Shown here piece after piece: positions 1-64,000 of a stretch of 64,000 nt of DNA. Positions within the stretch are counted from its first letter, which is position 1, and each line of letters starts with the position of its first letter. The position numbers were made by a program, and so were the translations under genes. A model generated the notes under the pieces. It did no database searches, had not been told where the DNA came from, and saw nothing but the letters and a program-made list of their open reading frames with translations. Source of the DNA: Okamejei kenojei (lineage: Eukaryota); contig CM069160.1 of NCBI GenBank assembly GCA_035221665.1, positions 15,314,001 through 15,378,000 on the forward strand, written 5' to 3'.

Positions 1-521
1 ATCTACGCACCAAAGATCCCATAGCGGAGCAATGATACTAGTGCGGAGATGGAAGCTGGTTACGGAAACATCCTCATAAAAATCAAAGATCTTTGGTAAA
101 AATCTTCTCCTCATTTTCTTTCTGCCTCTCTGCCTCACAATAAAAAGCAAAAAGGTGCGTATGTTCTTTCCACAGCGTCTGGGAAGTCTGGCCGGGATCA
201 GCATGGCTGGGATGCCAGGCTAAAGTTGCGGGGAGAATTGCAATGTATTTTTAACAGAATTATAATTTATTAACATATTAATCATTAACCAAAATATAAC
301 AATTATGAATTGACAAAATTATGAATTATGAATCTAACCATATATCACACCTACAAACTGTTCCCCCGCAATGCTGATTACACTGCGAGAGGGACATACA
401 AAGTCGGGTCGAGTTACTGAAATGGCCGAAGAAATGGCCCACGTTCAGCTCCATTGCGTACTACTCGTCAGCCCATTGGATTTAACAGGAGTGGACTATT
501 TTGCTCACTACAGGATCTTTG
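1..521. mobile_element. Same MITE, cut by the window edge
   Basis: TIR at 489-521, an extra internal TIR copy at 11-38, followed by TSD cttggga. Confidence 0.65.
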
Positions 522-1192
522 CTTGGGACTGTGTGACCCTCTGGAGAGTCTCTGCTTGAGCGAGGCCTAGAGGGTACAGTTGAACTGTAATTGCGCTTTG
601 TTAAAATAAAGATTAGTTGTTCAAGTGCCTGATTCAGTGTTTCTGACTGAAACTAGACTGGGGAGAAGCCTAGAACGAACAATTTACATGGTGACACATC
701 ATGTTAATACGATGTTAATAGAGACATTTAACAAGTGCTTAACAGTGACACCCCCACTGTCTTGTGGAAAGCGGAGATTTTAATTTTTTTTCACCGAAAT
801 TCAAAATCCAGATTACAAAACATGGGGGGGGATTGTCCCCCACCTCTCAAAACATGGGGGGGAGGGGGGGGGGGGGGGGGGGGGGACGCCCTCCAGGATT
901 TCATGCCTTCCTACACTGTAGATGCAACATGCCTTTGGATGTCGTTGCCTGAGGAAATACCTTGTTTTTAATCGACTAGTTTTATGGATCAGTCACATGT
1001 CTCTCTCACTCGATTTGATTGATTGAAGGATACAACATGGAAATCTAGTGACCATAAATACGGGCATTTGATAATAGTGTCTCATTCACTCACTCATTCA
1101 CTCACTCACTCATTTATTTTTTAACTTCTGTCGCGGGCTGTGGGTCTGATTTGCCCTCCCGCTGCCCTAGAGATAGCGGAGTGGTCACTTAC

Positions 1193-1522
1193 CGTTCACC
1201 GTGAGAAACGTCCCTGTCCCACATGCCTCGCTCATCATGGTTTTCACCTGACAGACATACAGACCGGAATCGTTAATCCGCACGTTATTCAATTGTATAG
1301 AAACGTCCATGTCTGTAGACGGTGCATCCGGCGCTTTGACACGACCTCTGTATTCTCCGGTATAATTGGAAACAGACATCCCGTTTGTGGCTCCCTTGAA
1401 CCAATTGTAGGCCCATATGTGATCCGTGGCGTTGTGACTACACGGGAGAATCACCGTGTCACCTTCAGTGGCCACAATGGTGGACGTGTCCTGAATGACC
1501 ACGATCTTCTCAGCGACAACAC
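1193..1522 (-). CDS. NCR3: V2 exon: second VJ-type Ig V domain (tandem duplicate of V1)
   Basis: 330 nt, phase 1-1, open frame, same splice sites as V1; translation GVVAEKIVVIQ...LPCSHNATDHIWAYNWFKG...DSGLYVCQV...CGTGTFLTVN. Confidence 0.85.
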
Positions 1523-2705
1523 CTGCGGGCGGCAAGCAAAGTCTACTTGGTACTTGGGACCCGCTGGTTACACGGTCCCTCACGGGCCCGACCAGAGACG
1601 TTGCCTGTCCATGTTCTCCAGAGATGCTCACTGGCCCGCTGAGCTACTCCAGCACTTTGTGTCCTCTTGTGTACAGTCACAGAGTGGCACCGCGTGGAAA
1701 CAGCCCCCCCCCCCCCCACCACCCCCCCCCCCAGCCCAACTTGCCCACACCGACCAACAATAGACAACAGGTGCAGGAGTAGGCCATTCGGCCCTTCGTA
1801 CCAATACCGCCATTCAATGTGATCATGGCTGATCATCCCCAATCAGTACCCAGTTCCTGCCTTCTCCCCATATCCCCTGACTCCGCTATCTTTAAGAGCC
1901 CTATCTAGCTCTCTCTTGAAAGCATCCAGAGAACCTGCCTCCACCTGCCTCCACCTCTGAGGCAGAGAATTCCACAGACTGAGGAAGAGAATTCCACATC
2001 CAACTTGCCGCATCTACACTATGTGACCCTCTGGAGTGTCTCTGCTTGAGCGAGGCCCAGAGGGCTTGATCAGGCAGATAGGAGGATCTAACCCGCGGTG
2101 GGATAGGTACAGTGGTTGAACTGTAATTGCGCTTCGTTAAAATAAAGATTAGTTGTTCAAGTGCTTGATTCAGTGTTTCTGACTGAAACTAGACTGGGGG
2201 GAAGCCTAGAACGAACAATTTACATGATGACACAGCATGATAATACGATGTTAATAAGACATTTAACAAGTGCTTAACAGTGACACCCCCACTGTCTTGT
2301 GGAAGCGGAGATTTTAATTTTTTTTTCACCGAAATTCAAAATCCAGATTACAAAACATGGGGGGGGGGGGGGGGAATGTCCCCCACCTCTCAAAACATGG
2401 GAGGGACGGGGGACACACACGCCCTCCAGGATTTCATGCCTTCCTACACTGTAGATGCGACATGCCTTTGGATGTGGTTGCCTGAGGAAATACCTTGTTT
2501 TTAATCGACTAGTTTTATGGATCAGTCACATGTCTTTCTCAGTCGATTTGATTGATTGAAGGATACAGCATGGAAATCTAGTGACCATAAATACGGGCAT
2601 TTGATAATAGCGTCTCATTCACTCACTCACTCATTTATTTTTTAACTTCTGTCGCGGGCTGATTCGCCCTCCCGCTGCCCTGGAGATAGCGGAGTGGTCA
2701 CTTAC

Positions 2706-3044
2706 CGTTCACAGTGAGATACGTCCCTGTCCCACATGCCTCGCTCGTCATAGTTTTCACCTGACAGACGTACAGACCGGAATCGTTAATCCGCACGTTA
2801 TTCAATTGCATAGAAGCGTCCATGTCTGTAGACGGTGCATCAGGCACTTTGAGTCTGAATACACGACCTCTGTATTCTCCGGTATAATTGGAAACAGACA
2901 TCCCGTTTGTGGCTCCCTTGAACCAACGGTTGGCCGATATGTGATCCGTGGCGTTGTGACTACACGGGAGAATCACCGTGTCACCTTCAGTGGCCGCAAT
3001 GGGGGACGGGTCCTGAATGACTGCGATCTTCTCAGCGACAACAC
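2706..3044 (-). CDS. NCR3: V1 exon: germline-joined VJ-type Ig V domain, NKp30/NCR3-like
   Basis: Boundaries ccgcAG|GT...aacg|GTAAGT, 339 nt, phase 1-1. Has B-strand Cys (LPCSHNA), C-strand Trp (WFKG), EYRGRV, DSGLYVC and a J-like GTGTYLTV in the same exon. The pattern resembles NKp30 (LPCSFNA, EFRGRL, GNGTRLVV). Confidence 0.85.
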
Positions 3045-3469
3045 CTGCGGGCGGCAAGCAAAGTCTACTTGGTACTTGGGACCCGCTGGTTACACGGTCC
3101 CTCACGGGCCCGACCAGAGACGTTGCCTGTCCATGTTCTCCCGAGATGCTGACCGGCCCGCTGAGCTACTCCAGCACTTTGTGTCCTCTTGTGTACAGTC
3201 ACAGAGTGACACAGCGTGGAAACAGCCTCCCCCCCCCCAGCCCAACTTGCCCACACCGACCAACAATAGACAATAGGTGCAGGAGAACCTATTTAAGAGC
3301 CCTATCTAGCTCTCTCTTGAAAGCATCCAGAGAACCTGCCTCCACCGCCCTCTGAGGCAGAGAATTCCACAGACTGAGGAAGAGAATTCCACATCCAACT
3401 TGCCGCATCTACACTAGTCCCACCTGGCCCATATCCCTACAAACCTATCCTGTCTATGTACCTGTCCAA

Positions 3470-3766
3470 GGCAGGTACAAAATGCTGGGGTAACTCTGCA
3501 GGACAGGCAGCATCTCTGGAGAGAAGGAATGGGCAACGTTTCGGGTCGAGACCCTTCTTCAGACTGGTGCCAGGGGAGGGGCCGGGACAGAGATAGAATG
3601 TAGTCGGAGGCAGTCAGACTGGTGGGACAACTGGGAAGGGGAGGGGATGGAGAGAGAGAAAGCAAGAGCTATCTGAAGTTAGAGAAGTCAATGTTCATAC
3701 CGCGGGGGTTTAAATTGCCCAAGCGAAATATGAAGGTGCTGCTCTTCCAATTTGCACTGGGCCACT
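3470..3766 (-). mobile_element. Penelope-derived short repeat with hammerhead-like core
   Basis: Minus strand agtCTGAAGAagggtctcgacccGAAACGTTgccc. Related fragments lie at 1590-1660, 3110-3180, 8285-8575, 26790-26870, 42545-42730, 47820-48055 and 50725-50825. Confidence 0.55.
3535..3562 (-). ncRNA. Putative minimal type I hammerhead ribozyme core
   Basis: CUGAAGA - stem II gggtc/gaccc - GAAAC-GUU; stem I is weak. Confidence 0.4.
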
Positions 3767-4330
3767 ATAGAAAATAGACAATAGACAATAGGTGCAGGAG
3801 TAGGCCATTCGGCCCTTCGAGCCAGCAACGCCATTCAACGTGATCATGGCTGATCATCCCCAATCAGTACCCCCTTCCTGTCTTCACCCCATATCCCCTG
3901 ACTCCGCTATCTTTAAGAGCCCTATCTAGCTCTCTCATGAAAGTATCCAGAGAACCGGCCTCCACCGCCCTCTGAGGCAGAGAATTCCACAGACTCACTA
4001 CTCTGTGAGAAAAAGTGTTTCCTCGTCTCCGTTCTAAATGGCTTATCCCTTATTCTTAAACTGTGTGGCCCCTGGTTCTGGACTACCCCAACATCGGGAA
4101 CATGTTTCCTGCCTCTAGCGTGTCCAAACCCTTAACAATCATAGATGTTTCAATTAGATATCCTCTCATCCGTCTAAACTCCAGAGTGTACAAGCCCAGC
4201 CGCTCCATTTCTCAGCATATGACAGTCCCGCCATCACGGGAATTAACCTTGTGAACCTATGCTATACTCCCTCAAATTAGGGGACCAAAACTGCACACAA
4301 TACTCCAGGGACCAAATACTGCACACAAGG
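3766..4330 (-). mobile_element. CR1 (HER1-like) LINE 3' fragment
   Basis: Typical CR1 3' end with (aatagac) tail repeats and gtaggccattcggcccttcga. Shorter copies at 1757-1980 and 3264-3375. Confidence 0.8.
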
Positions 4331-4494
4331 GGCGAAACCAATTTAGCCCAATGTACGGGATGTCCCGGCTAATACGGGACAGTTGGCAAAACGCTATTGC
4401 CACCCCACGCCTCCTCGCCACCCCTCACCACCTCCCCCCTCCTTCCCCTCTCTACCCAAGAGCGACCCCATTGAGAAACAGAAATCCAACTCAC

Positions 4495-4540
4495 CCGCGG
4501 CCACAGACAGGATCCACACAATGGCGCCTGGCCCCACCAT
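4495..4540 (-). CDS. NCR3: Leader (signal peptide) exon of NKp30/NCR3-like receptor
   Basis: Minus strand reads ccagtgATGgtggggccaggcgccattgtgtggatcctgtctgtggccgcgg|GTGAGT = MVGPGAIVWILSVAAG. It is 46 nt, has a good Kozak context and a consensus phase-1 donor. It splices in frame to the V exons to give MVGPGAIVWILSVAAGVVA/EKI. The symbol is a family-level assignment; orthology is not proven. Confidence 0.8.
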
Positions 4541-4789
4541 CACTGGATAAACCACACAGGGAAAATGGAAATTCAGCGACCAGCTCCTAAGCCCATCCCC
4601 CCCACCCCCCCACCCCTTCCCTCATCCACCATGGATTGAATTGCCATTAATTCAGCGTGCAAAAGAGCTGGGGGTGATGGAATTGTCGGCCATTTCATTC
4701 TCCGTACACCCAAACCACTCTCCACTGAGGCTAGTCGCGGCCCTCGTAAAAAACAATCAAAGTGCGCCAGATTGAATTAAGATATTCCA

Positions 4790-5030
4790 CGGGTTCCCTC
4801 CGACTGAAGAACGACCGCGGTTTGGGACCGCGTGGCTTTTTCTCCGGGATCTCCGGGATCTCCGGTTTCCGCCCACACTCCAAAGACCCATCGGTTCGTG
4901 GGTTAATTGGCTTGTGAGAAATGCACACTGTCCCCAGTGTGTGTGTAGGGTAGTGTTGGTGTGCGGGGAATCGCTGGTCGGCGCGGCCTCGAAGGGCCTG
5001 TTTCCGAGTTGTATGTCTGAACTAAACTTG
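4790..5030 (+). mobile_element. HE1-type V-SINE fragment
   Basis: V-domain core ctccggtttcc.cccacactccaaagac and CR1-like tail. Confidence 0.7.
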
Positions 5031-5149
5031 GGTTTTGTAATCGCTACCGGCCTGTCCAAAGCGGCCATTCACGGTCAGGGATCGGGCAGTCGATGCATTA
5101 GCCCATGTCGACGGACTGGCCCTTTCCAAGAGTATTTCGTTTAAAATGT

Positions 5150-7295
5150 TTTATTTATTATTATTGTTTTTTGTTAGAAGCATTGTACATACATTTTAAT
5201 CAAGATATGCAACATAATACATTTCGTGTACAACTTCTCTTTTTTTTTAAATTTTATACACTTTAACCTATAATAGAAAAAAAAGAGAAAGCAGAGAAGA
5301 ATGAGAATAGTGGTGAAGTGTAGTCCGCAGCGGTTGGCGTTAGATGAATGATGATGGTCAAGCAGACTGCGTGCTTGAGAATGTGAACAACAGAAAGAAA
5401 AGAAAGAAAAAAGAAAAAAAAACAAGGCCCCAAAGAGAAGAGGGCCTTAAGAAGGGAAAGGAAATAAGTAAAACATCCAAAGAAGGTAGAGCTAAAGAAA
5501 AAAGAAAGGGAATGTGCCTAACTCATTACCATTCACACCCATCACCTAGTTCTTAAACAATAACTTACTAGGGTTATGCTGCACCATATTATACTTCTAA
5601 CAAATCAATAAAAGGTGACCATATTCTTAAGGATTGTTCTTGTTTTCCTGCTAGAACGAGTCTCATTTCCTCGAGATGTAATATTTCCGACATATTTGTG
5701 ATCCACATTTTAAACGTTGGGATAGGAGCGTTTTTTCCAGAATTTAAGCATATGATTTTTTTGCCGTTATTCAACCATAGTTTAGGAAACATCTTTGAAA
5801 TATGGTTAGTTCAGAGCAGGCTTCCCTTGCTCCGAAGATAATTAATTCTGTGTTTGGGTCCAGTCTTAATTTAAATATTTTTGAAAAGCTTTCAAAAATG
5901 TCCTTCCAAAAATTCTGAAGTTTTGCACAGGGAACAAATGAGTGTGCTATTGTTGCCTCGTTAGTTAGGCACTTATCACAGAAGGGAGAGACTTTGGAAA
6001 TATTTTATTTAGTTTTGTTTTTGAGTAATATAATCTGTGTACAATTTTAAATTGGATCAGTGTATGTCTAACGTTATTCGAACATTTATATACATATGAC
6101 ATATAGTCTTCCCATCTGTCCTTGGGAATTTCTATAGCCAATTCTTGATCCCAATTCTTTTCTTATACCTTCTGTCGAAGGTATATCTATATTTAGAATA
6201 GTATTATAAAAATATGATGTTAAATGATCCAATTCTACTTGTCTATTCATGCCTTGCTCTAGAAGATCCAACTTCAAATTTTGATCATCTGGTGAGTGTT
6301 TTTTCACATAATCTCGGGTTTGTAAGTATCTAAAATATTGATTGTTTTCCAAATTGTATTTAAGCTGTAAGTCTTGGAATTGTAAACATTTTCCCTCTTC
6401 ATACAAATCTTCCCAAGTCTTAATTCCTAATCGTTCCCAGAGCGTGAACGTTTTGTCAATAGTCGATGGCTCAAACGCCGGGTTGTTAGCTGTCGATGAG
6501 AGAAGCGAAAGATTTCTTAATTTAAGGGAGGATTTTATTTGTCTCCAAATTCGTATTGTGCTGTGAATCATCGGGTTTCTCTTATATATTGTGCTCTTCA
6601 ATTTTATTGAGCAGAAAAGAATCGCTCCTATGTTAAAAGGAATGCAATCCTCCTTCTCCATTATTGTCCATTCTGCCTGTTGTGATGAACTATCCAACCA
6701 GTACATTATATTTTTAATGTTCACTGCCCAATAGTAGTACGTAAAATTGGGAAGTGTGTCCACCATATTCATAAATGTCTTCTTTGAATTCTATGGGATT
6801 TATAGTCCCACATGAAATTTGTAATGTATGAGTCAATTTTTTTAAATGAGTTTTTAAAGTATATATGTAGGTATTGCTTGGAATCAATAGAGTATTTGTG
6901 GAAGAAAAATCATTCTAATGGCATTTATTCTGCCTATTAAGGACATCGGTAGTGTTTTCCAAAATTGGATCGATGTTTGTAATTTAGTAAGTAAGGGCAG
7001 ATAATTTGCGTTAAATAGAGATTTATATTTTCTAGTAATTTGAAAACCCAAGCATTTAAATCTTTCTGTAGTAATTCTAAAAGGGTATTTTAAAAGATGT
7101 GTTTTATCGTCATTATTTCGCTTTTATTCCAATTTATTCTATATCCTGAAAAGGAACCAAATTCTTCTATTAAGTTTAATAGATTTGGTATGCTAATTTG
7201 TGATTTTGTAATATATAATAATACATCATCTGCATATAATGATATTTTATTATTAGAGTTTTATGTATTGTAACCGTGAATATTGGGGTGCATTC
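5150..7295 (-). mobile_element. L1-clade LINE, 5'-truncated (ORF2 C-terminal half, 3' UTR, A-rich tail); inverted copy at ~33560-35812
   Basis: ORF 6086-6772 has LPNFTYYYWA and QYFRYLQTRDY, typical of fish L1 ORF2; Cys/His C-terminal region downstream. Confidence 0.85.
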
Positions 7296-7302
7296 TAGAG
7301 TA

Positions 7303-7629
7303 TTTAGTTTGTTTTTAGTTTGAGAGATACAGCGCGGAAACAGGCCCTCGGCCCACCACCTCGCACACCTCGCACACCAACACTATCCTACACACACGAT
7401 CACCCCGCACACCAGCACTCTAAGGTCGATTTACAATTTTTACCAAAGCCAATTAACCTACAAATCTCTACGTCTTAGGAGTGTGTGGGGGGGAAACCGG
7501 GGCACCCGGAGTAAACCCATGCGGGTCACTGGGAGAACGAGCAAACTCCGTACAGACAGCGCCCGTGGTCAGGATTGAACCCGGGTCTGTGGCGCCGTGA
7601 GGCGGCAACTCTACCGCTGCGCCACCGTG
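7303..7629 (-). mobile_element. HE1-type tRNA-derived V-SINE, full length; inverted copy at ~33220-33550
   Basis: A box tggcgcagcgg, B box ggttcaatcc, V core and (aaact)n tail. Confidence 0.85.
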
Positions 7630-8024
7630 TCTCGCATAAAGATTCCCGGCATCTGCAGTCTTTTGTGTCTCCGAGATACAGCCACACAATGAATACAGTA
7701 CAGATGTCATTCTAAAGTCTACCTTTGTTAGAGTTGTGAGTCTTTCTCCCCTGCAGCGATCAAGCCTTGCTGGATGTACCTTGTATCTCCTGGTCGCGGC
7801 TCAAATCCGTCTCCTTTGTAGATGCCAACTGACTTTGCGTCCTCTCTCCAGCCTCCCCCCTCTCTCTCTCTCCATCCAATCTCACATCACACAACACGAG
7901 CGGGCTTGTAGGTTAATTGTCCCTGCTGTAAAATTGCCCCCGAGTGAGAAGATAGTGGTCGAGAAAGCGGGATAACACGAGGGACCTGTTTCCACGCTGT
8001 ATCTCTCAACTGAACTAGGAAGCG

Positions 8025-8088
8025 CTCTCTCGCTCTCTCTCCCTCTCTCTCTCTCTCTCTCACTCTCTCTCTCTCTCTCCCTCTCTCT
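8025..8088. repeat. (CT)n microsatellite
   Basis: Seen directly. Confidence 0.9.
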
Positions 8089-8394
8089 GACCGCCTGTAC
8101 AACAATAAGTAGACTTCGTGCGCTTGGGTCGCGGTTTGAGGAACCAGCACTGGCTCTATTTCCATGTCAGCGTGAACAGATCAGGCCGAGCGCGCTAGCG
8201 AGCAGCCGAAGTCAGAAGTGGCTATTTCTGATCTTTAAGCGAGAGTATTATTAGAGCGATATATAGCGCGGAAACAGGGCCACGGTAGACACAGGGTGCT
8301 GGAGTAACTCGGCGGCTCTTCAGTGTAAGTCAGCATCTGCAGTTCCTTCCTTCACATAAAGAATTGCAGATGCTGGTTTATACAAAAGATAGAC

Positions 8395-9570
8395 ACAGAG
8401 TACTGGAGTAACTCAGCGGGTCAGGCAGCATCTGTGGAGAACATGGATAGGTGACGTTTCACAGAGTGCTGGAGTAACTCAGCGGGTCAGGCAGCATCTG
8501 TGGAGAACATGGATAGGTGACGTTTCACAGAGTGCTGGAGTAACTCAACGGGTCAGGCAGCATCTGTGGAGAATCAATCAACCTTTATTGTCATCTTGCA
8601 AAGCAACAGTTGTCCAGTGCGAAATGAGAAGACTTTTCCCAGGGAATACCAGAGCATCGCACATAAAGCTTAAACATTTCACACATAAATAAAAATAATA
8701 AAAACAATCCAGTCCCTGATAAAAACAATACAACAGTTAAAAGTGCAGGTAAAAAAACCCAGCAACAAGTAAAAACATTCATAAATTGCCCAGGGCAGCT
8801 GATTTAAGTGGCCAGTGCCAGAGTTTCTTATTAAATTGTCAGTGCAAAAAAGCAGCAGCATCAGGTGGATGACTGTTTAGCAGCCTCACAGCCCGTGGAA
8901 GGAAGCTGTTTAATGCCTGGTTGTCCGGGCTTTGATGCTGCGGAATCTCTTGCCTGATGGCAGGAGATCCAGGTTTGTGTGGTGTGTGTGGGTGGGGGGG
9001 GGGGGGGGGGGGGGGGGCAGTCTGTCCTTTGCGATGCTCGGTGCTTTTTTCAGGCAGCGGCTCTGGAACAGTTCTTGTACCGAGGGCAGGGAGACGCCAA
9101 TGATCCTCTCTGCTCCCCTCACTACCCTCTGCAGAGCCTTTCCGTCTGAGCAGTTGCAGTTGGAGTACCGCATGTTAATGCAGGACGTGAGCACAGACTC
9201 CACCGTGCCCCTGTAAAAAATCCCGAGGATGTTGGCGGGGAGTGAGGCCTGTTTGAGTTTCCTCAGGTAGTGCAGTCGCTGATGGGCCCGTTTCACAATC
9301 CCAGTGTTGTTCCTGGAACAGGTGAGACTGACTGTGATTTGCACTCCGAGGGACTTTATGTTCCCCACTCTCTCTCTGGATAGGTGACGTTTCACAGAGT
9401 GCTGGAGTAACTCAGCGGGTCCGGCAGCATCTGTGGAGAACATGGATAGGTGACGTTTCACAGAGTGCTGGAGTAACTCAGCGGGTCAGGCAGCATCTGT
9501 GGAGAACATGGATAGGTGATGTTTCACAGAGTGCTGGAGTAACTCAGCGGGTCAGGCAGCATCTCTGGAG
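8395..9570. repeat. 66-bp tandem repeat (~6 units) interrupted by a Rex1 element
   Basis: Unit acagagtgctggagtaactcagcgggtcaggcagcatctgtggagaacatggataggtgacgtttc at 8395-8573 and 9378-9570. Confidence 0.85.
8572..9375 (-). mobile_element. Rex1/Babar-clade LINE 3' fragment
   Basis: KRAHQRLHYLRKLK...FYRGTVESVLT...LQRVVRGAERIIG...LLPSGKRFRSI; ends aataaaggtt(gatt)n. Confidence 0.85.
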
Positions 9571-10039
9571 GAAGGAGGATAGGCGACCTCTGTGGTCGGG
9601 ACGCTTCCGAATCTGCAAATCTGAAGAAGGGCGTCCACACGAAACATCGCCCCCCCCCCCCACACACACACACACATTGAAGTACATTAGCTAATGTCCA
9701 CATGGATTCAGACACAGTGGGGAAATTCTAAAAAACCACAAATGATTGTCGGATATTCTGACAGCACAGACATATTCACAGCCGTCTCTGACACGGATGC
9801 GATGTTATTAATAGACACATTCGCAATGTCAGAAATACATACAGTCGTTCACACAGTCTACTGAACCACTCACTCGAATTCGCAGTAGAACACGTAGTCC
9901 AGCCACTAACNNNNNNNNNNNNNNNNNNNNNNNNNNNNNNNNNNNNNNNNNNNNNNNNNNNNNNNNNNNNNNNNNNNNNNNNNNNNNNNNNNNNNNNNNN
10001 NNNNNNNNNNNNNNNNNNNNNNNNNNNNNNNNNNNNNNN

Positions 10040-10121
10040 CACACACAGTGCACACACACTCGCACACACATACACACACACACACACGCACGCACACACA
10101 CACACTCACACGCGCACACAC
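10040..10121. repeat. (CA)n microsatellite next to a gap
   Basis: Seen directly. Confidence 0.9.
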
Positions 10122-10379
10122 AGCTTTTATCACTGCATCGAGTGACAACGTGTTCCTCGGCAAAAACAAGCAGGGCAAATGTTTAATCAATAAGTCTGGG
10201 CGATTAGGGAAGAATTATTGACGGTGGGTGGGACGACCGATAGTTGCAATCTCTGACACACACTCACACACACACACACTGACTGATGCGACTGCAGAAG
10301 TAAAAATCCCCACAGCGTTGAACAAGTGATTAGACATGTTTGTATAAACCCCCAAGACATAGGGCGACACAGTAACGGT

Positions 10380-13343
10380 AAATAGTAAGATTAAACCGAG
10401 GAGTAACGATGAGGGATTACCCCCGCCTGGTGCTGGACACGGCATACCACAAGCAGCGGCATGAAAAACACAGACATAATAGCCAGTAAGAAGTAAGGCT
10501 CAACATAGATTTAGAACTACCAGACATTTATTTTATGAGGGTCGGGTCGTGGAGGGCACAATCCCTCATCGTTACTCCTCATAAATAAACGATCAAACTT
10601 CGACTGGTAAGTTCTTGTTTAATCTTTACTATTTTACTTCGGAGTCACGTGACACTACGTAAGATTTTGAAGCGTTTCACGACATACGACACTCTGTCAT
10701 TCAACACAGAATGAGCAAAATACACACATTTTTTCCCCAAACATTGCCTCAAGTTATGGAGATAAATTATTTCACATAATTAAAAGATGTAATGACCTCA
10801 CACACAAATATCAATTGATATATATAATTTGATGGTATGAACAAAGCAACAATTATAGAGAACCCAACACTCCGTGGAATCACACACCATGACTGGTTCC
10901 ATTTAATTTAATATTTATTTTACACCCTCCTGCGGCCTTGAATCTTTGCTCGAGCGGCTCATCCTGTGCCATTCCTGTGAAGTATTCACCTCCTTAACAG
11001 AGTGATTTTCCACATTTTCACTTTCCACTGAGTGTTATTCAATTTTTAACCAGCTAGAATACATTTCTCTAGAACATCAGTTTTTTACTGAACTAATGTG
11101 TTTTTTTTTTTATTGTGATAAGTAGTGCTGTCTCATCACCACAGAGACTCTTACACACATATCATCGATGTTCACACACACACACAATTTAAGGCCGACA
11201 GGATATGCTTATAGGGTTTACCTTGGTTTCAGCTCGGGCTTGGTCTGCTTTGTTTGGTAAATTATAACATATATGATAATGTAATCTGTATCCATATACA
11301 ATTATAACATAATATTTGCAGTGTTTGCACTCTTATATGATACAGCATTATTTCTTTCAATGTTAACTTTTTTTGAATCATTGATAGAATTGGCCATTGC
11401 AAAGCAATTCAGGACTATATTGATCTCCAGACATGTATTGAATTTTGGACACATATATATACATATATTTATATTCTACACATATATCCCTTTTCATTCA
11501 TATTACAAGAACCCATAATTTTCTTGGTTAGTATATTGTCCGTAAATAGGACGATAAACACTGGAAGCGAGCCCATTATTGGCATCAATTAGATACTCGA
11601 GAAAATGCAATGCACAAGGAACTCACATATATCTAAGATGACAAATAACACTGTATACAGACTTCAATTTCTTATAAAAATATTGTTTTTTTAAACTTAT
11701 TTCTGCAAATTGCAGTATAAAACTTCTTTATACCATAAATTATTTTATTGTTATGATGTTATATTATTTATTTAAACATTTCATAGACTTCTGTTGACCA
11801 TCAAACTGTTGTAACAACCTGCAGATAGTCACATATTTTCATGTCATGGATGCACTTTGTACAACAATAAATTACACACTATGAATCATCACAAGTGGTT
11901 CACACATCACTCAATATTTATGAAAACCATGATGATCCGTTTGGGCCACCAACAATGCCTCCGGCAGTGTCCTGCTACATTTTCATCAGACACTGCCCTA
12001 TCAGACAAAAATGAGGAACACACACATTTTTCCTCATGGAGAGAAACAGCATCCACCTTTCCTGTTCTTGGTTTACCCACGAGAACATTTGAAAGATCTT
12101 CTGTGATTTAATCTGTATACCAGATTAAACGTAGTATTCCATATTAATGACAATGTATTTTCCCCCTTAATTTGTTGTCTCCGATCACATTGTCTCTTCT
12201 TAGAGATAACAGCTGGACTAAAACACATAGAATATGCCACATACTGTTTACTCCAGGCCCATGATATTATTTTACGCTTATATGTGAGCCACACTCTCTC
12301 TGGTATTGTTCACCTTGATATGGACATGGACACTTCATAATAGAACAATCATATTTAATCCTCTCTTATACTTTAATAATTAATACAAAGGATTTGAGAA
12401 ATTTCTTAGGACAATCCATCAATTACCTGGTATTATTGTCAAGTCCCAACAAGAGACGTCAATCATTTTTATAGAAATAGAATTGAAATATGCCATTCTT
12501 ACCCAAATATTCACAGAAGCTGTACCATCATCTGTTAATATGGCTTCAGCTTGCAATAGTGCCTGCATATACAGCCCTTGTGAAAATCCCTTTTTTTTCC
12601 AGTTTTCTTTTTTATCCATTACTTTATAATGGGGTATTTGCATAAGCCTCTCACAAAGGCATTCACAATTCTTATAAAGCTTGTTTTCCTCTTTTGGAGC
12701 TTTATTTACTCTTTTCCTAAATGGCACTCCTTTTCTAATGGAGGGACAAAGTCTGTCAACAAAGCAATGAGACATATTTGTTCATGGAACAATTTTCCCA
12801 TCTCTTATGGTGCTGAATTTCTCCTAAATAAAGAATATAATTTATGACATTTTTGCATGCCTAACAACATAGGCTTTATGTGATGGGTCAGGTCCTTGCC
12901 TTTCAACAGGCTTGTAATTGCAGCACTAATTTGCAGCTGACTCTTTATAACTTCCAATTTAAATGTGATCAAGATAAACCCATGACCACCTCATTAATGC
13001 AAGTGTTGATCTTTTATCAGTACAATTGTTCTTCCAGTAAAACAAGCCTTGAAACTGGTTTTTATCCTTTAGACAATGTTTTAACTTGCACCGCTTGACC
13101 CATTTTAATAAATTTCAAGCACCTGTAATATTTGATTAACACTTTGTTAATAACAACTGTATTTCAATGTTGAAGATGTTTCCATTTTAATAAATTGTTC
13201 TTACACTGTGAAAGTGTATATAAAATGATGTTTTGTATGGTTTATACCATCAAATCCTTACACTGAGGTAATTTTATAATATATATATATATGTACGTAC
13301 CCCTTCTTTATTGGAGTTACTTTTGGGTGCAAACCTAAAATCA
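10380..13343 (-). mobile_element. DIRS1-like element, copy 1 (5'-truncated, damaged right terminus)
   Basis: Reverse-complement homologue of 18955-22180 with different flanks; ICR at ~10557-10665; deletions in the right end. Confidence 0.85.
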
Positions 13344-13414
13344 ATTAGGAGACCAAAACTGTGCAAAATACTCCAGATGTGGTCTCACCAGAGCCCAATA
13401 CAACTGCAAGTCGT

Positions 13415-13790: not shown

Positions 13791-13814
13791 ATTCATTCGG
13801 ACCAACCGGAGAAA

Positions 13815-13936
13815 AAACCCACGTGGGTCACGGGAGAAACGTACAAACTCCGCACAGACAGCTCCAGTGGTCAGGATTGAACCAGGATCTCCGGCGCTGT
13901 GAGGCAGCAACTCTACCGCTGCGCCACCGTGCCGCC
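13815..13936 (-). mobile_element. HE1-type SINE 5' part; inverted copy at 63116-63242
   Basis: A and B boxes plus start of the V core. Confidence 0.75.
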
Positions 13937-53300: not shown

Positions 53301-56300
53301 AAAGTTTTATGCAGGAGACAAAAGAGTGTGTTATAGTTGCATTTTGGGATAGACATTTATCACAAATGGGGGAAGTATGTGGATAGAATTTATTCAATCT
53401 AGTTTTTGAGTAATATGTTTGCAAATACACAGGACTAGATGTTAAAAATCCAAGGTGCCAAATATCAATTTACTCCCAATGGTGATGGGAGCCTTCTGCA
53501 CTCACCTATGCTCCTCCGATGTTGAGAAAGGCTAGGCAGACACGTCATTGAGGTTATCAAGTGGGCACCTACTTTCATCAACGTTTGGCTGATTGAACCC
53601 ACGACGTCTCCAGTAGGCTCAGCGGTGCATTCTGGCGTCCCAGAACCACCCCCCTCTGCATCTGTCTAGTCGGTTATTTGGGAGACCAAATGGGGCCTTT
53701 CCTCTTCAGCCAGAGCCACTGGCTACTCCGCTCTGCTACCCGTGATGTTTCTTTGATGGCCTGGCGTAGGGCTTGTCCGCTGATCCCCAGGTTCCTTATC
53801 AGTATTAAAGTAGATGTTGCCACAATCCTCTGACATCCAACTTCTACCGGGCAGATCTTAGCTCTCCAGCCCCGCTGTTCTGCCTCCGCTGCAAGCTCTG
53901 TATATCGCAGTTTCTTTTCTTTCGAAGGCTTCCTGCACAGCATCCTCCCAAGGGACTGTGAGCTCCACAAAGTACACCATACGCTGACAGTTCGACCAGG
54001 AGCACAAGATCAGGCCTCAAGTTAGTGATGGCTATTTCTGATGGAACTGTAAGCCGTTGGTCCACATCCACCAGCATCTGGCAATCCCGGGCTGCCTCCA
54101 GCTGTCCAAGCCTGGCCCTTGGTGAATTTTCTATTGCCTTTGCTCCCCCACCCCCCCCCCCCCGAACAAAGGCAATTGTCTTAACTGGGTTGGTTGTTCT
54201 GGGCGGCAAGGCATTGCTGGCTGTATCCTCCTGCGTTACAGAGTCGCTGCCAGGCAGTTTGAGCACTTGATTATGTCTCCAGGTGTACCGTCCTTGGGAG
54301 AGGCTTTACTTTACACCCAGTGAGATATGCCTAAGTGTGGCTGGTGTTGAACACAGGGGGGCATGATGGATCTTCGCCCATCCATTGGTTGAGATGTTTT
54401 GGGCTAGGAAGGACATCCTAGGTTGCCCGAATGAGGAAACTTATCCTGCTCGCCTCCATCTCCCACATGTCCTTCCAACTGATCTTCCTCTTTTCCACAC
54501 TCTCCCATCTCATCCACTGGCCCTGTTTAGCTTGCGACACAGCCGTGGCACACCTGCTCAACTCCTCCTGTCGGCGGACTTCGTCCGCGACCAACTTCCG
54601 GCGCTCCAGTGATGATGCCTTGTTCCAGCAAGGTCGCTTTCCGTCAAGCCCCAAGCCACTTCTTCCATGTTGGATTTGCCCTACAATGTCGCCTTGCTGG
54701 AGAGCAGATTTGGCCTGCTGTGTCGCATTCTTAGCCATCCACTTCTTTCCTGTTGCCAGGGTTGGAGCAGCTGCTCGGATGACAGGGTCCCTTGATTCTG
54801 CCAGGGTCATCTCTAGTCTGACTTTAGTGCACTTGTACTCCTCTGTGAGACTAGAGAGAGGCAGCTGGAGTACCCCCTGACCGTACAGGCCTACGCTGCT
54901 CAGGCACCGAGGAACACCTAACCACTTTCTCACGAAAGAGATGATTGAGGGTGATGTCATACATTGTTAGTGGCCACATATTTGGATAGAATTTATTCAA
55001 TCTAGTTTTTGAGTAATATAATCTATGTAAAATTTTAAATTGAATTTAATTATGTCTTACATTAATCGAACATTTGTGTATATATATCAAATACTTTTCC
55101 CATGTTTCCTTCGTAATTTTTATCATTAATTCTCGTTTCCATTCTTCTCTAAGTGCCTCTGTCGATGGTAAATCTATATTTAAAGTACTATTATACAAGT
55201 ATGATATTAATTTCTGTGAGTCCGCCTTAATGTTCATTACTTCTTCCAGTGGATCTAAAGTTAAGTTTTGATATCTTTGTATGTATTTCTTCATGAAGTC
55301 GCAGATCTGAAGATATTTAAAATATTCGTTATTTTTCAGTTTAAATTTTAATTGTAATTGTTAGAATGATAACAGATTTCCCATTTCATACATATCCCCG
55401 ATCCTTTTAATTCCCATTCTTTGCCATTGATTATATGTTTTATCAATAAGATATGGTTTAAATGAAGGATTATTCACTATTGGCATTAAAAATGATAGGT
55501 TTCTTAATTTTAAGGATAATTTGATTTGTTTCCAAATTCTTATTGTATCATGTATAATTGGGTTATTCTTATATATTGTGTTGTTCAATTTTATCGGTGA
55601 GAAGAGGATCACTCCAATATTACAAGGAGAACAATCCTCTTTCTCCATTCTTATCCATTCTGTCTGTTGGGTAGAACTGTCCAACCAGTAAATTATATTC
55701 TTAATATGCACTGCCCAATAATAATACAAAACGTTCGGAAGTGAAAATCCCCCAATGTCTTTTGGTTTGCACAAATGTTTTCTTTGAATTCTGTGCGATC
55801 TATAATCCCAGATAAAATTGGTAATATTGGAGTCCAGTTTTTTTGTCGTTTTTTGGTATATATAATGGTATAGATTGAAATAGGTATAATATTTGTGGAA
55901 AAAATATAATTTTTTCAGCGTTTATTCTGCCTATTAATGATAACGGAAGTGTTTTCCAGAATTTAATCGTGTTGAGTTTATTGAATAAAGGCATAAAATT
56001 AGCATTAAATAATGCTTTGTATTTTGTAGTAATTTGAATACCCAAATAGAATCTTCAGATCACTATTTAAAAGGGCAATTGCTCTATAAGGTCCCGGCTC
56101 TTCAAGGTTTGTATCTTTTTTCGGAATTAATGTGATAATTGATTCTGCTAGAGTCTGCGGTAAAGTCTGCTCCTTGAACGCCTGAGTATACAGGCATTGT
56201 AGACATGGGGAACTTATATTGTTAAATGTTTTGTAAAATTCATTATTGAGCCCATTTGGGCCAGGAGTTTGTCCACTTTTCAGTGATTTAATGGTCTCTG

Positions 56301-56950
56301 AAATGTCCTTTACTGTTATCTCTGAACCCAATCCTTATGTTCAGTCTCACTGAGGGTTGGAAGATTGCACTTCTCCAGAAAAGTCAGCATCGTCACTGAA
56401 TCGGCTGTTGTTTGAGATGAGTAGAGGCTTTGATAAAATAGTTGAAATCTTTCATTGATATCTTTGGGCAGTGAGAGCAGTTCTCCTTTTTCCGATCTGA
56501 TTTTATGTATGGTACGGTCGTTTTCTAATTGGCGAAGTAGTCTTGCTAAACGTTCATGGGGTTTATCGCCAAATTTTGCTTGGTGAATTGAAATGCCCTA
56601 TTGATGCTTGCTGAGAATATCTGGTTTAATTTGTATTTGAGTGCAGCTATTTTGTTATGTTTTCCTGTGGATGGCTCGGCAGCATTTTCTGAGGCCAACT
56701 GTTTTATTTGTTTTTCTAGCTCTAGTGGCCTTTCTTCTCCTGTTCTGCGATCCATATTTGACCCGAAACATCACCCATTCCATTTCCCCAGAGATGCTGG
56801 CTGGCCCGCTGAGTTACTCCAGCATTTGGTGTCTATCTTCAGTGTAAACCAGATATCTAATGTGCCAAGCAACCCGTTAGATTGCCTTGGATTTTGTGGA
56901 CACTTTGGTTGCTGACCAGTTCATTCTGTTTGTTGTAAGAATTTGCTTTC
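50390..56950 (-). mobile_element. Nested L1 elements (host 56048-56950 and 50390-52782; inserted L1 52783-56047)
   Basis: ORF2 pieces TPGPNG, LIPKKD, QGCALTPMLFALAIEPLA, GGFSLPN..YYWA, PLCDKC; poly(T) at 52783-52824. Confidence 0.85.
53417..54982 (-). mobile_element. Hero-like non-LTR retrotransposon (restriction-like endonuclease type), 5'-truncated, 37-bp TSD
   Basis: RKWLGVPRCLSSVGLYG, QQGDIVGQIQHGRSGLG, Zn-knuckle region, NLRPDLVL, KKLRYTELA..GW..PVEVG; direct repeats at 53380-53416 and 54983-55019. Confidence 0.8.
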
Positions 56951-57259
56951 ATTAGTTCATAAGTCATTGGAGCAGAATTTGGCCATTCAGCCCATCGAGT
57001 CTATTCCACCGTTCAATCATGACCGATCTCTCTTCCCTCTCAACCCCATTCTCCTGCCTGCTCCCCGTAACCTTTGACTCCTTTACTAATCAAGAACCTG
57101 TCAATCTCCGTTTCAGCAGATTCACCACCCTCTGGTTGAAGAAATTCCTCCTCATCTCGTTTGACGGCACTGGGCCTGTACTCGCTGGTGTTTAGAAGAA
57201 TGAGGGAGGGGAAACCCCATTGAAATGTACCGAATAGTGAAAGGCTTGGACAGAGTGGA

Positions 57260-60200
57260 CTAGACCAAGTGTGGACCCGTTGGTCCCCGTCCCCCAACGC
57301 AATATTCCACCACTGACCCATAGCCCACAACTGCGCAGGTCACATAGTGACACGAGTCACGGCAACACTCCCCCAACTGTGCAGGTGCGGCCGGCAAGTG
57401 TGAGCGCGATTGCGACATTTTCAAAGTTCAAAATGGCAATAACCTGTAAAATATATGATCAACTAAACTAAGTGGGACGCATTGGGTCCCAGCATCACAC
57501 GGGGGGGCTGGTCACCAACGCAATATTCCACCTCTCCACCAATTCCAATATTGCTTGCCAGTGGGGGGGGGCCCTTTCTGTTGCGCTAGAATGGGTGTTG
57601 CGGGCCGAAGGCTGGAAGCCAACTGTTGCAATGATTTTAAAAGCCAAGGCAAGGGAAATAATTTGGCCGCAGCCACTAGACAACCTCTTCAAAAAGGTGA
57701 GGCAAACAATTGGGCAGCAAGCACTCACCTGACAACTAAAATTCATTTTGTGAACACAACATTTTTTTTTAAATGCGAGGCAAACAATTGGGCAGCAAGC
57801 AGCCAAATGACAACCAAAATCCATTTTGTGAACACAAACTTTTTAAAAAGGCGAGGCAAACAATTGGGCCGCAGCCACCTGACAACCAAAATCCATTTTG
57901 TGAACAAAAACTTTTTTTAAAGGCGAGGCAAACAATTGGGCCGCAGCCACCTGACAACCAAAATCCATTTTGTGAACACAAACTCTTTAAAAAGGCAAGG
58001 CAAACAATTGGGCCGCAGCCGCCTGCCAACCAAAATCCATTTTGTGAACACAAACTCTTTAAAAAGGCGAGACAAACAATTGGGCCACAGCCGCCTGCCC
58101 ACAAAAACCATTTTGTGAATACAAACTCTTTAAAAAGGTGAGGCAACAATTGGGCAGCAAGCAGCCAAATGACAACTAAAATCCATTTTGTGAACACAAA
58201 CTTTTAAAAAAGGTGAGGCAAACTAATGGGCCGCAGTCACCTGACAACCAAAATCCATTTTGTGAATACAAACACTTAAAAAGGTGAGGCAAACAATGGG
58301 GCCGCAGCCATTCTACAGCCAAAATCCATTTTGTGAACACAAACTTTTTTTTAAAAAGGCAAGCAGCCATCTCACAACCAAAATCCATTTTGTAAACACA
58401 AACTTTTTAAAAAAGCTAGGCAAACAATTGGGAAGCAAGCAGCCACCTGCCAACCCAAATCCATTTTGTGAACACAAACTCTTTAAAAAGGCGAGGCCAA
58501 CAATTGGTCAGCAGCCACCTGACAACCAAAATCCATTTTGTGAACACATACTCTTTAAAACGACGAGGCAAACAATTGGGCTGCAGCCGCCTGAGAACCA
58601 AAATCCATTTTGTGAACACAAACATTTTAAAAAGGCGAGGCAAACAATTGGGAAGCAAGCAGCCACCTGCCAACCCAAGTCCATTTTGTGAACACAAACT
58701 CTTTAAAAAGGCGAGGCAAACAATTGGGCTACGGATGCCTGTCAACCAAAATCCATTTTGTGAACACAAACTCTTCAAAAAGACGAGCCAAACAATTGGG
58801 CCGCAGTCACCTGACAACCAAAATCCATTTTGTGAACACAAACACTTCAAAAAGGCAAGACAAACAATTGGGCCGCCGCCACCTGAGAACCAAAGTCCAT
58901 TTTGGAAACACAAACTTTTTTCTAAAAAGGCGAGGCAAATAATTGGGCAGCAAGCAGCCTCATGACAACAAAAATTCATTTTGTGAACACAAACTCTTTT
59001 TCAAAAAGGCGAGGCAAACAATTGGCAGCAAGCAGCCACCTTATAACCAAAATTCATTTTGTGAACACAAGGTTTTTTTAAAAAAAGGTGAGGCAGACAA
59101 TTTGACAGCAAACAGCCACCTGACAACAAAAATTCATTTTGTGAACACAAACATTTTTTTAAAAAGGCGAAAACAATTGGGCAGCAAGCAGCCACCCGAC
59201 AACCAAAATTCATTTTGTGAAAACAAACTTTTTTTTAAAAAGGCGAGGCAAACAATTGGGCAGCAAGCAGCCAAATTACAACAAAAATCCATTTTGTGAA
59301 TACAAACTCTTTAAAAAGGCGAGGCAAACAATTGGTGCTGCAGCCACCTGACAAATAAAATCCATTTTGTGAACACAAACTTTTTTTAAAAAAGGCGAGG
59401 CAAACAATTGGGCAGCAAGCAGCCAAATGACAACCAAAATCCATTTTGTGAACACATGCTTTTGAAAAAGGCGAGGCAAACAATTGGGCAACAAGCAGCC
59501 ACCTACCAACCCAAATCCATTTTGTGAACACAAATTCTTTAAAAAAAGGTGAGGCAAACAATTGGGCCGCAGCCGCCTTACAACCAAAATACATTTTGTG
59601 AACACAAACTCTTCAAAAAGGCGAGGCAAACAATTGGGCCGCAGCCACCTGACAACCAAATTCCATTTTGTGAACACAAACTCTTTTAAAAGGCGAGGCA
59701 AACAATTGGGCAGCAAGCAGCCACCTGACAGCCAAAATTCATTTTGTGATGACAAACTTTTTTTTTTAAAAGGCAACGCAAACAATTGTTCAGCAAGCAG
59801 CCACCTACCAACACAAATCTATTTTGTGAACACAAACTCTTTAAAAAGGCGAGGCAAACAATTGTGCCACCTGACAACCAAAATTTATTTTGTGAACACA
59901 AACTCTTCAAAATGGCAAGGCAAAGCAATTAGGCAGCCACCTACCAACCCAAATCCTTTTTGTGAACACAAACCTTTTTTTAAATAGGTGAAGCAAACAT
60001 TGGGCAGCATGCAGCCACCAGACAACCAAAATTCATTTTGTGAACACAAACATTTTTTTTTTTTTTAAAGGCAAGGCGAACAATTGGGCAGCAAGCAACC
60101 ACCTGACAACCAAAATTTATTTTGTGAACAGAAACCTTTTTTTAAAAAGGCGAGGCAAACAATTGGGCAGCAAGCAGCCACCTGACAACCAAAATCCATT

Positions 60201-62076
60201 TTGTGAACACATGCTTTTTAAAAAGGCGAGGCAAACAATTGTGCAACAAGCAGCCACCTACCATCCCAAATCCATTTTGTGAACACAAACTCTTTAAAAA
60301 AGGCGAGGCAAACAATTGTGCCGCAGACCCCACTTGATAACCAAATTCCATTTTGTGAACACAAACTCTTTTAAAAGGCGAGGCAAACAATTGGGCCGCA
60401 GCCACCTGACAACCAAAATCCATTTTGTGAACACAAACTCTTTAAAAAGGTGAGGCAAACAATTGGGCCGCAGCCGCCTTACAACCAAAATACATTTTGT
60501 GAACACAAACGCTTCAAAAAGGCGAGGCAAACAATTGGGCCGCAGCCACCTGACAACCAAAATACATTTTGCGAACATAAACTTTTTTTAAAAAGGCGAG
60601 GCAAACAATTGGGCAGCAAACAGCCACCTGACAGCCAAAATCCGTATTGTGAACACAAACCTTTGGAAAAAAAGGCGAGGTAAACAATTGGGCAGCAAGC
60701 AGCCACCTGACAACCAAAATTCATTTTGGGAACTCAAAATGGTTAAAAGAAATGCGAGGCAAATAATTGGGCAGCAAGCAGCCACCTGACAGCCAAAATT
60801 CATTTTGTGATGACATACATTTTTTTTTAAAAGGCAAGGCAAACAATTGTTCAGCAAGCAGCCACCTACCAACACAAATCTTTTTTGTGAACACAAACTC
60901 TTTAAAAAGGCGAGGCAAACAATTGTGTCAACCAAAATTTATTTTGTGAACACAAACTCTTCAAAATGGCAAGGCAAATAATTAGGCAGCAAGCAGCCAC
61001 CTACCAACCCAAATCCTTTTTGTGAACACAAACTTTTTTTTAAATAGGCGAAGCAAACATTGGCCAGCAAGCAGCCACCAGACAACCAAAATTCATTTTG
61101 TGAACACAAACTTTTTTTTTTAAAGGCAAGGCAAACAATTGGGCAGCAAGCAACCACCTGACAACCAAAATTTATTTTGTGAACAGAAACCTTTTTTTTA
61201 AAGGCGTGGCAAACAATTGGGCAGCAAGCAGCCACCTGACAAACAAAATTCATTTTGTGAATTCAAACTGGTTAAAAGAACTGCAAGGCAAATAATTGGG
61301 CAGCAAGTAGCCACCTGACAGCCTAAAATTCATTTTGTGAATACAAACTTTAAAAAAAAAGGCGAGGCAAACAATTAGGCAGCAAGCAGTCGAAACAGGG
61401 TGGACAACATGAAGGTTGCAATCATCCACCCCAATGCATCACACTCTCTCTCTTCAGTTCTCTCGTCCTCCATTAATCCCCCTCTCCCCACCCTCCTCCA
61501 CCCTCCTCTGCTTCCTCCCCTCACCCCCACCCTCCCCTCCCCCCTTCTTCCCCTCCCTCCTCCATTACCTCGGCCATCCCCCTTACCTACCCCTATCCTC
61601 CTCCATATCCCCCTCATCCCCAGCACTCCCATACTCCCTCTTCTTTCCCCTCTTCTCTCCCTCCTCCAACCCCTCCCCTCTCTCCCTCTCCTTTCCCCTA
61701 CCCTCAGTCACATCACCTCCCTCCATAACCGCTCTACCCTCCCTATCCCCTTCCTCTTTTCTGTAATGCCCCGAATGCCCCCCCCTCCTCGCGCCCCCAC
61801 TCCTCACCCCTCCCCCATACCCACCCCCGAATCTTCCCCCCATCCTCCTTGACCGCCCCCCTTTCATGCGGGTTATGAAAATAACGCATGATTTTGCACC
61901 CGTAAATGTAACCTCAAGAATTTGATGAGAGGATCGAAATTGAGTTTTTGAGATATGTATGTAAATGACCCTGATTCGGGAAAAACAATACCGTCAACCG
62001 TGACGTCATTGTGGATGACGCTCGACCGCTACGCCACCCCCTAAATGATCCTCCCCCCCCTAGCCGGGGGACACAG
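57260..62076 (-). mobile_element. Helitron-like element, paralogous copy without DIRS
   Basis: Hairpin ggacc-cgtt-ggtcc (57273-57286) lies 9 nt from terminal CTAG (57263-57260), which is followed by T. Confidence 0.65.
57635..61392 (-). repeat. 73-79-bp satellite array, uninterrupted copy
   Basis: Reverse complement of the 15432-25947 unit. Confidence 0.95.
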
Positions 62077-63707
62077 NNNNNNNNNNNNNNNNNNNNNNNN
62101 NNNNNNNNNNNNNNNNNNNNNNNNNNNNNNNNNNNNNNNNNNNNNNNNNNNNNNNNNNNNNNNNNNNNNNNNNNNNNNNNNNNNNNNNNNNNNNNNNNNN
62201 NNNNNNNNNNNNNNNNNNNNNNNNNNNNNNNNNNNNNNNNNNNNNNNNNNNNNNNNNNNNNNNNNNNNNNNNNNNNNNNNNNNNNNNNNNNNNNNNNNNN
62301 NNNNNNNNNNNNNNNNNNNNNNNNNNNNNNNNNNNNNNNNNNNNNNNGGGGTGTGGTGAGGGGGTGTGTGTGTGTGAGGGGGTGTGTGTGTGTGANNNNN
62401 NNNNNNNNNNNNNNNNNNNNNNNNNNNNNNNNNNNNNNNNNNNNNNNNNNNNNNNNNNNNNNNNNNNNNNNNNNNNNNNNNNNNNNNNNNNNNNNNNNNN
62501 NNNNNNNNNNNNNNNNNNNNNNNNNNNNNNNNNNNNNNNNNNNNNNNNNNNNNNNNNNNNNNNNNNNNNNNNNNNNNNNNNNNNNNNNNNNNNNNNNNNN
62601 NNNNNNNNNNNNNNAGATTTACAGCGCGGAAACAGGCCCTTCGGCCCACCGGGTCCGCGCCGACCAGCGATCCCCCCACACTAACACCACCCTACACCCA
62701 CTTGGGACAATTTTCACATTTACCAAGCCAATTAACCTACAGATCTGTACGGCTTTGGAGTGCGGGAGGAACCGAAGATTGTTCTCTGGTGGGAAAAAGA
62801 AGAAAACACTCGCAGAGCACAGGGGAGAAGTACAAACTCCGTACAGACTGCATCCGTAATCGGGATCGAACCCGGGTTTTTTGTTGTCCGGGCGCTATGA
62901 GGCAGCAACTCTACCGCTGCCCCACCGTGATCAGCCGTGATTGAATGGCAGAGTAGACTAGATGGGCCGAATGGCCTAATTCTGCTCTATCACTTATAGG
63001 GACTTGCCGCACCTACCTCCTCTTGGCAGCTTGTTCCACTCACCCACCATTCTATGTGTGAATAAAGTTGCCTTCAGGTTCCTGTTATTCGTTTACCTCT
63101 CAACGTCAACCTAAGGGTGGCACGGTGGCGCAGCGGTAGAGTTGCTGCCTCACAGCGCCGGAGATCCTGGTTCAATCCTGACCACTGGAGCTGTCTGTGC
63201 GGAGTTTGTACGTTTCTCCCCGTGACCCACGTGGGTTTTCTCTGGTTGGTCCGAATGAATTCCATGGCGCTCCCATTACAAGATGAATGCGTAACTCCCA
63301 TAGCTGTTGGAACCTGATGAGCAGGCATTCAGGGTCTTGAATAGATTCAGCTGGAACAATCTGGACATCAGCAGCATTGAACTGGGCCGGTTGATCATGA
63401 AATCTTCTGGCACATCGAGCAGCCTCTGTGCCTTGCCAGGTGAAGGAGAATAGAGGCACGAACATCCGGAGCGACTACAGCGTGCAACGCATGCACATAC
63501 ACAGTGAAATCTTCATCAAAGATGTCCCATCGCTTGGCGATGTCGCCATCAAACACCAAAGGCTCTGGTTTGTGAACTGCTGACGCCATGGTAAACGCAC
63601 AAACTGGACACAAAAACAAACTAAAATAAAGGTAAAACGACTTGCAGTTGTATTGGGCTCTGGTGAGACCACATCTGGAGTATTTTGCACAGTTTTGGTC
63701 TCCTAAT

Positions 63708-64000
63708 TGATTTTAGGTTTGCACCCAAAAGTAACTCCAATAAAGAAGGGGTACGTACATATATATATATATATTATATAAAATTACCTCAGTGTAAGGA
63801 TTTGATGGTATAAACCATACAAAACATCATTTTATATACACTTTCACAGTGTAAGAACAATTTATTAAAATGGAAACATCTTCAACATTGAAATACAGTT
63901 GTTATTAACAAAGTGTTAATCAAATATTACAGGTGCTTGAAATTTATTAAAATGGGTCAAGCGGTGCAAGTTAAAACATTGTCTAAAGGATTAAAACCAG
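63708..64000 (+). mobile_element. DIRS copy 1 paralogue (runs off window)
   Basis: Near-identical reverse complement of 13055-13343, with the same CR1 junction. Confidence 0.85.

Follow-up and report, generated by a model that had tools for sequence, protein, structure and literature searches.

On the reading that we hold to be fairly likely, a 64,000-nucleotide stretch of the genome of Okamejei kenojei (GenBank assembly GCA_035221665.1, contig CM069160.1, scaffold positions 15314001-15378000; "the window" denotes this whole stretch) cuts through a short cluster of NKp30/NCR3-like receptor genes in head-to-tail order, the contig that forms its left half was probably placed backwards, and the gene on that contig and the noisy gene with which the right contig starts are probably one copy. 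To judge from its sequence, the repeating unit carries an elasmobranch NKp30/NCR3-like gene made of a leader exon, one or two V1 exons, a V2 exon and a transmembrane (TM) exon. Coordinates are relative to the window, with negative values upstream of position 1. The gene copies are called U0, U1 and U2 on the upstream contig, M on the left contig (a name also used for the contig itself), R1 and R2 on the right contig, H on a contig at 178-235 kb and F at 497-502 kb.

Inverted match and orientation of the left contig

The two halves of the window match each other in inverted and permuted order, as an initial annotation of this DNA had described, and the join between them (31952-32451) is a run of exactly 500 N. 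Self-BLAST pairs 1-3409 with the reverse complement of 41528-38087, and in the same manner 3731-8121 with 37333-32704, 13055-14404 with 64000-62623, 25938-28677 with 57645-54981, 28642-30543 with 53416-51539 and 31420-31951 with 51548-50996. Identity in these matches is 80-96% with many short indels, or 89-99% when substitutions only are counted, and inverted matches of at least 500 bp cover 20,401 of the 31,951 bases on the left and 19,374 of the 31,549 on the right, far above chance. The spacer that precedes the genes (spacer B), thought to be common to both halves, is so in part: nothing in the right half is collinear with 17253-22175, and the right half carries an extra ~1.6 kb at 53416-54981. 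The sequence expected before position 1 if the units are joined end to end was found there. Positions 0 to -2329 correspond to the reverse complement of 41529-44050, and a V2 exon of M at -2071..-2431 corresponds to the reverse complement of 44891-45248; the contig then ends at a second 500-N run (-3683..-3184, ~3.2 kb before position 1). The circular permutation is simply what one sees wherever a window cuts a tandem array. One receptor gene per unit and a head-to-tail order of units both held up; the proposed fixed unit of 36-41 kb gave way to units that differ in length and exon number, with leader exons spaced 21.1, 46.0 and 36.7 kb apart.

Contig M (-3183..31951, 35,135 bp, of which 1..31951 lies in the window) is bounded by a 500-N gap at each end and is oriented on the minus strand, opposite to both neighbours; all receptor exons from -72 to +104 kb are on the plus strand, apart from its own. 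We doubt the inversion because of the strand of the neighbouring genes, the fixed 500-N runs on both sides, the redundancy of M and the reversed duplicates at other gaps, and a scaffolding error, already suspected in the initial annotation, most likely accounts for it. Besides the central gap, 500-N runs occur at -136822, -3683, 177722 and 235194, which makes five in the ~435 kb fetched. According to the available text of PMC9292758, both 3d-dna and SALSA2 insert a spacer of 500 N by default, and short sequences are poorly or unreliably oriented by Hi-C. Nearly all of M (34,333 of 34,550 non-N bases, 99.4%) is found reversed in the two neighbouring contigs, a figure that tandem paralogy would give too; a degenerate end of 215 bp has no match in either neighbour.

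Contig M is one of several reversed duplicates on this scaffold. The gap-bounded 57-kb contig H (178222-235193) repeats ~73.4-140.6 kb in reverse from end to end, mostly over non-array flank and with 95-99% identity in substitutions; it is probably an unpurged flipped haplotig, which would also complete gene U2. A third reversed duplicate lies by the gap at -136822, where -147.7k..-136.9k is paired with -124.6k..-113.9k. U2 consists of a leader and a V1 exon cut by the gap, and H, which has no leader, starts just before V1 and continues through V1, V2 and TM. A ~30-bp duplication and a ~27-31-bp deletion occur in both and in none of Ma, Mb, U1a, U0 and F (R2 is rearranged there), and because of these common changes the upstream contig is most likely continued by flipped H and not by M. 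We infer that U2 and H together are an allele of R2.

The arrangement resembles the false duplications, heterotype and homotype, in long-read assemblies described by Rhie et al. 2021 (PMC8081667, as far as its accessible part goes), where copies lie at contig boundaries by a gap, are about a read length long and are of unequal consensus quality. The frameshifts in the unpolished copy and the fixed 500-N spacer likewise recall those duplications and the Hi-C misorientation treated in the same available text of PMC9292758. Contig M has the gap-side boundaries, the redundancy with its neighbours and the difference in consensus quality by which such duplications are recognised. Unlike them, it lies over a real tandem cluster, in which it is difficult to tell alleles from paralogues and from redundant copies.

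One gene copy or two at the central gap

The case for M and R1 being a single gene is built on shared changes and on the distribution of errors. Both carry a ~570-bp intron deletion and a 9-bp deletion in V1b, neither of which is present in U1. Of the 27 informative sites between 3300 and -2400, a range that takes in the V exons, R1 has the base of M at 21 (this and the further counts of informative sites omit positions not cleanly aligned in a copy, 56 of 121 for R1). Private short indels number 30-66 per kb in R1 over 32.5-44.4 kb, with 0-7 in M there, and over 26-32 kb it is M that has 33-60, with 0-12 in U and R. Such complementary noise fits a dovetail duplicate in which the reads were drawn to one copy, as in the false duplications and the artefacts of polishing set out in the excerpted parts of PMC8081667.

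Several observations weigh against this reading. Upstream of 3300, the 38 informative sites of R1 are split, 18 going with M and 18 with U1, the other 2 following neither; taken with the sites in the V exons, this comes to 39 M-like and 24 U1-like. A U1-like tract in R1 (~6682-3937) is unexpected for one copy unless one consensus mixes reads. No one partner accounts for the spacer of M, which is itself a mosaic, U-like by 64 to 29 at 31951-25938 and R-like by 25 to 9 at 15432-13343. Noise by itself is no proof of redundancy, being usual at contig ends in any case. Against the backwards placement, opposite-strand copies do exist on the scaffold, as F lies on the minus strand at +497-502 kb with no gap in the 50 kb around it. 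M may owe its pattern to a mixed consensus, or it may truly be a hybrid sister unit. A separate idea, that the end of M continues the junction of the V2 duplication in R1, was dropped: the local score of 32 (28 of 2000 shuffles) was post hoc, and global alignment favours an ordinary continuation, 152 versus 133.

If M were such a sister unit, it would be misoriented yet a real extra tandem copy, a recent sister duplicate of R1, made a hybrid of neighbouring units by unequal crossing-over and carrying conversion tracts, and the two would be true paralogues. We consider this unlikely, though some observations speak for it: a ~2.7-kb tract in which M differs from R1 and R1 equals U1, a full spacer B of its own before the M gene (U1 is without one), the mosaic ancestry expected from unequal crossing-over, and the multi-V and duplicated-exon forms among the homologues P0001-P0003. 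On the other side, R1 is of raw-read quality exactly where M is polished, M contributes almost no sequence of its own, and an unpurged reversed haplotig sits on the same scaffold. Divergence does not decide in its favour either. Between H and the right contig, 349 of 18,358 clean sites are different (1.9%), and M and its partners differ in the same range (~1-5%), so that the divergence of M does not demand paralogy.

A real inversion of one 35-kb array unit, with the assembly broken at both breakpoints, is very improbable: assemblies do break at inverted repeats and a minus-strand paralogue (F) lies ~430 kb downstream, but each boundary coincides exactly with a 500-N run of fixed length, no orientation-switch junction was seen in the sequence at the boundaries of M, the contig ends decay mid-unit into unalignable read-end sequence (on the left in the middle of a V1 exon), H continues the upstream contig, and reversed redundant contigs occur at other gaps too.

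The array is real but short; with M taken as a backwards-placed duplicate of R1, it probably holds three to four genes per haplotype at a spacing of 21-46 kb, with both haplotypes in one scaffold. Haplotype 1 would run from the upstream contig (U0, U1 and the start of U2) into the flipped 57-kb contig H, and haplotype 2 would consist of flipped M overlapping the right contig, which gives the gene M/R1 followed by R2 and its flank. This would leave three genes on one haplotype and perhaps four on the other. Because the spacer of M starts within another unit's 3' part, haplotype 2 would be one unit longer than haplotype 1, unless the start of that spacer is chimeric. The cluster may have grown through unequal crossing-over, conversion and exon duplication, varying in the number of genes and domains. 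Copy number in the assembly is as unreliable as had been suspected, since some of the 7 leader exons are probably allelic or redundant. Both forms of V1, with and without the 9-bp deletion, are present in one outside short-read run; contig depth over V1 was 62 for the shared piece and 4-48 for variant pieces, an uncalibrated measure (the run holds 0.46 of words) that was not used as copy number.

NKp30/NCR3-like genes and their surroundings

Among characterised proteins, human NKp30 is the closest to both V exons. It supplies the top 4 PDB sequences for V1, by a small margin over antibody and other immunoglobulin (Ig) domains, and 4 of the 5 PDB matches to V2 at E<=1e-7. RefSeq homologues were recovered by a full HMMER search in Mobula hypostoma (XP_062903900, XP_062903898) and Heterodontus francisci (XP_067865380-81, the latter named NCR3-like); a word-index protein search gave nothing. 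The automatic names of the closest homologues are mostly "uncharacterized" or other Ig names. The Mobula homologue P0003 has the layout leader-V1-V2-TM and is 55% identical to V1b. All 15 MHC_I matches are on the same scaffold, at 1.6-8.5 Mb, ~7 Mb away from the window at 15.3 Mb. This location agrees with NKp30/NCR3 being a gene of VJ type linked to the major histocompatibility complex (MHC), as stated in the accessible sections of PMC10751288 and PMC12227049, the second of which also cites the nurse shark NCR3 genes MT914154-61. The window genes resemble the elasmobranch NCR3/NKp30-like family in their non-rearranging VJ-type V exons, leader-V1-V2-TM layout, presence on the MHC class I scaffold and several copies, and depart from it in the tandem doubling of V1 in U1, M and R1. 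Three distant V-domain matches (31-34% identity) lie 0.7-1 Mb upstream at scaffold positions 14357367, 14580569 and 14609852 and are possibly other NCR3 subtypes.

The window genes are not filed under the human-type form of NKp30, in spite of human NKp30 being the best solved-structure match to V1 and V2 and of the TM arginines that they have in common. Human NKp30 has one V domain and no tail motif, according to what was available of PMC6514059; the genes here have 1-3 V domains and a glutamate in the middle of the TM helix, and one member is without the TM arginine and has candidate tail exons with tyrosine motifs. Within the window the V domains are V1a, V1b and V2. Exon layouts are V1-TM in U0 and F, the only copies with a single V domain, V1a-V1b-V2 in U1, M and R1, and V1-V2-TM in R2 and H. 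The products are predicted to be type I membrane receptors, each having 1-3 V domains of the non-rearranging VJ type.

In M, all exons of which are on the minus strand, the leader exon (4495..4540) has 15 codons and a phase-1 donor and resembles the N-terminus of P0003. It has 7 matches genome-wide, 5 on the plus and 2 on the minus strand (M itself and F at +502 kb). Leader candidates at 8782, within a LINE-like (long interspersed nuclear element) repeat, and at 8165 were discarded in favour of 4540. V1a (2706..3044) is an intact VJ-type Ig V domain with phase-1 boundaries, and V1b (1193..1522), also intact, is a tandem 1.5-kb duplicate of it, with human NKp30 as its best PDB matches; its 9-bp deletion is also present in R1b and R2. 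Both are V-set domains of the single-exon VJ type with a J-like GxGT strand.

The plus-strand exons of R1 are noisy. The leader is placed approximately at 36390..36440, V1a (38460..38806) is broken by many 1-3-bp indels that are probably read errors, and V1b (39993..40324) shows the 9-bp deletion and most of the M-specific bases. V2 (43790..44055), likewise noisy, is followed by an AAGTC satellite at 44125-44486. A second V2 copy (44894..45213), 5'-truncated, without an acceptor and again followed by AAGTC satellite (45253-46042), is either a real exon duplication or a read-join artefact; it could be real, since the Mobula homologue P0001 has four V2-type domains. The TM exon (48185..48301) encodes two arginines at the outer edge and a glutamate in mid-helix, and a candidate cytoplasmic mini-exon of 19 nt (49092..49110) is conserved in U1, R1, R2, H and F. 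In U1, the V2 exon (~-43.9k) merges into AAGTC satellite and is without its last strand and splice donor (~75 bp), which may be a real deletion or an assembly slip. F is a distinct V1-TM paralogue on the minus strand, with no gap within 476-526 kb. Some sequencing runs, presumed to be of RNA, contained pieces of a diverged V1 exon at low depth, with intron bases and no splice joints, and are no evidence on expression.

The right contig starts at raw-read noise level (32452..46500), its first ~250 bp having no match in the unit, and the start of spacer B in M (25938..31951) is equally noisy. In the right contig spacer B fills 50996..64000 and leads to R2 at 73-104 kb; it contains fragments of a LINE reverse transcriptase at 51878-52784 and a single satellite array at 57680-61389. 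The repeat scan found two plus-strand satellite arrays in M, one of 79-bp period at 15433..17252 and one of 72-79 bp at 22176..25937. Element Y, a dispersed high-copy repeat with 2464 candidates in the genome, lies at 18954..22123, and an inverted copy of it at 10398..13343. The single 72-79-bp satellite array of the right contig stands beside two in M and in the upstream spacer, with unique sequence between them, which suggests a deletion or collapse through the satellite. The upstream spacer alone has a 4.9-kb insertion (-22066..-17177), the end of which matches the end of element Y. By their motifs both elements may be DIRS-like.

Transmembrane charge and a possible paired-receptor locus

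The TM exons divide the gene copies. One or two arginines stand at the outer edge of the helix in U0 (one), U1 (two), R1 (two) and F (two), and R2 and H have a leucine there; the mid-helix glutamate is common to all of them. Behind R2, exon-like stretches at +95.4, +101.2 and +103.8 kb contain the motifs IYLPM, IQYAII and GYDEL, which match the tails of ray and shark homologues. They were found by hidden Markov model (HMM) and motif scans with HMM E values of 0.1-0.5, their support being motif, order and presence in R and H; tblastn with the homologue tails missed these tail exons. By BLAST, the IQYAII and GYDEL stretches recur only in H, with no copy in the other units. Near-identical ectodomains are here joined to a charged TM in some copies and to a candidate tail of the immunoreceptor tyrosine-based inhibitory motif (ITIM) type in another, which is the pattern of paired receptors as far as sequence alone can tell.

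Human NKp30 signals through its TM arginine with CD3zeta/FcRgamma (PMC6514059, in the part available). The arginine-bearing copies are predicted to do likewise, pairing with CD3zeta/FcRgamma and signalling via an adaptor that bears an ITAM (immunoreceptor tyrosine-based activation motif), which would make them of activating type. The terminal arginine-free gene would be their inhibitory-type partner, acting via its own tyrosine motifs. We tentatively suggest, as a possibility that falls somewhat short of probable, that a ray or shark has built a paired-receptor locus in the style of KIR/LILR from the ancient NKp30 VJ domain, with one terminal inhibitory gene bearing a tyrosine-motif tail and arginine-TM activating genes that differ, in how many there are and in how many V exons they have, from one haplotype of a single animal to the other. 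A search of the open literature gave no report of a paired NCR3 cluster from an elasmobranch; its coverage does not extend to the main shark NCR3 papers, where such a cluster may be in print.

The mirror structure itself is likely an ordinary assembly error of a known kind over a known gene family. The inversion holds little biology, and serves as a warning that the scaffold probably contains both haplotypes, together with reversed redundant contigs; neither the number of genes counted (7 leader exons and 11 V1 matches) nor the frameshifted "pseudogene" at 36-48 kb should be trusted. The cluster is of modest interest to comparative immunology. If the split between arginine-TM and tyrosine-tail genes and the copy difference between haplotypes are true, then NKp30, a single activating gene in humans, would in cartilaginous fish have given rise to a variable family of paired receptors.

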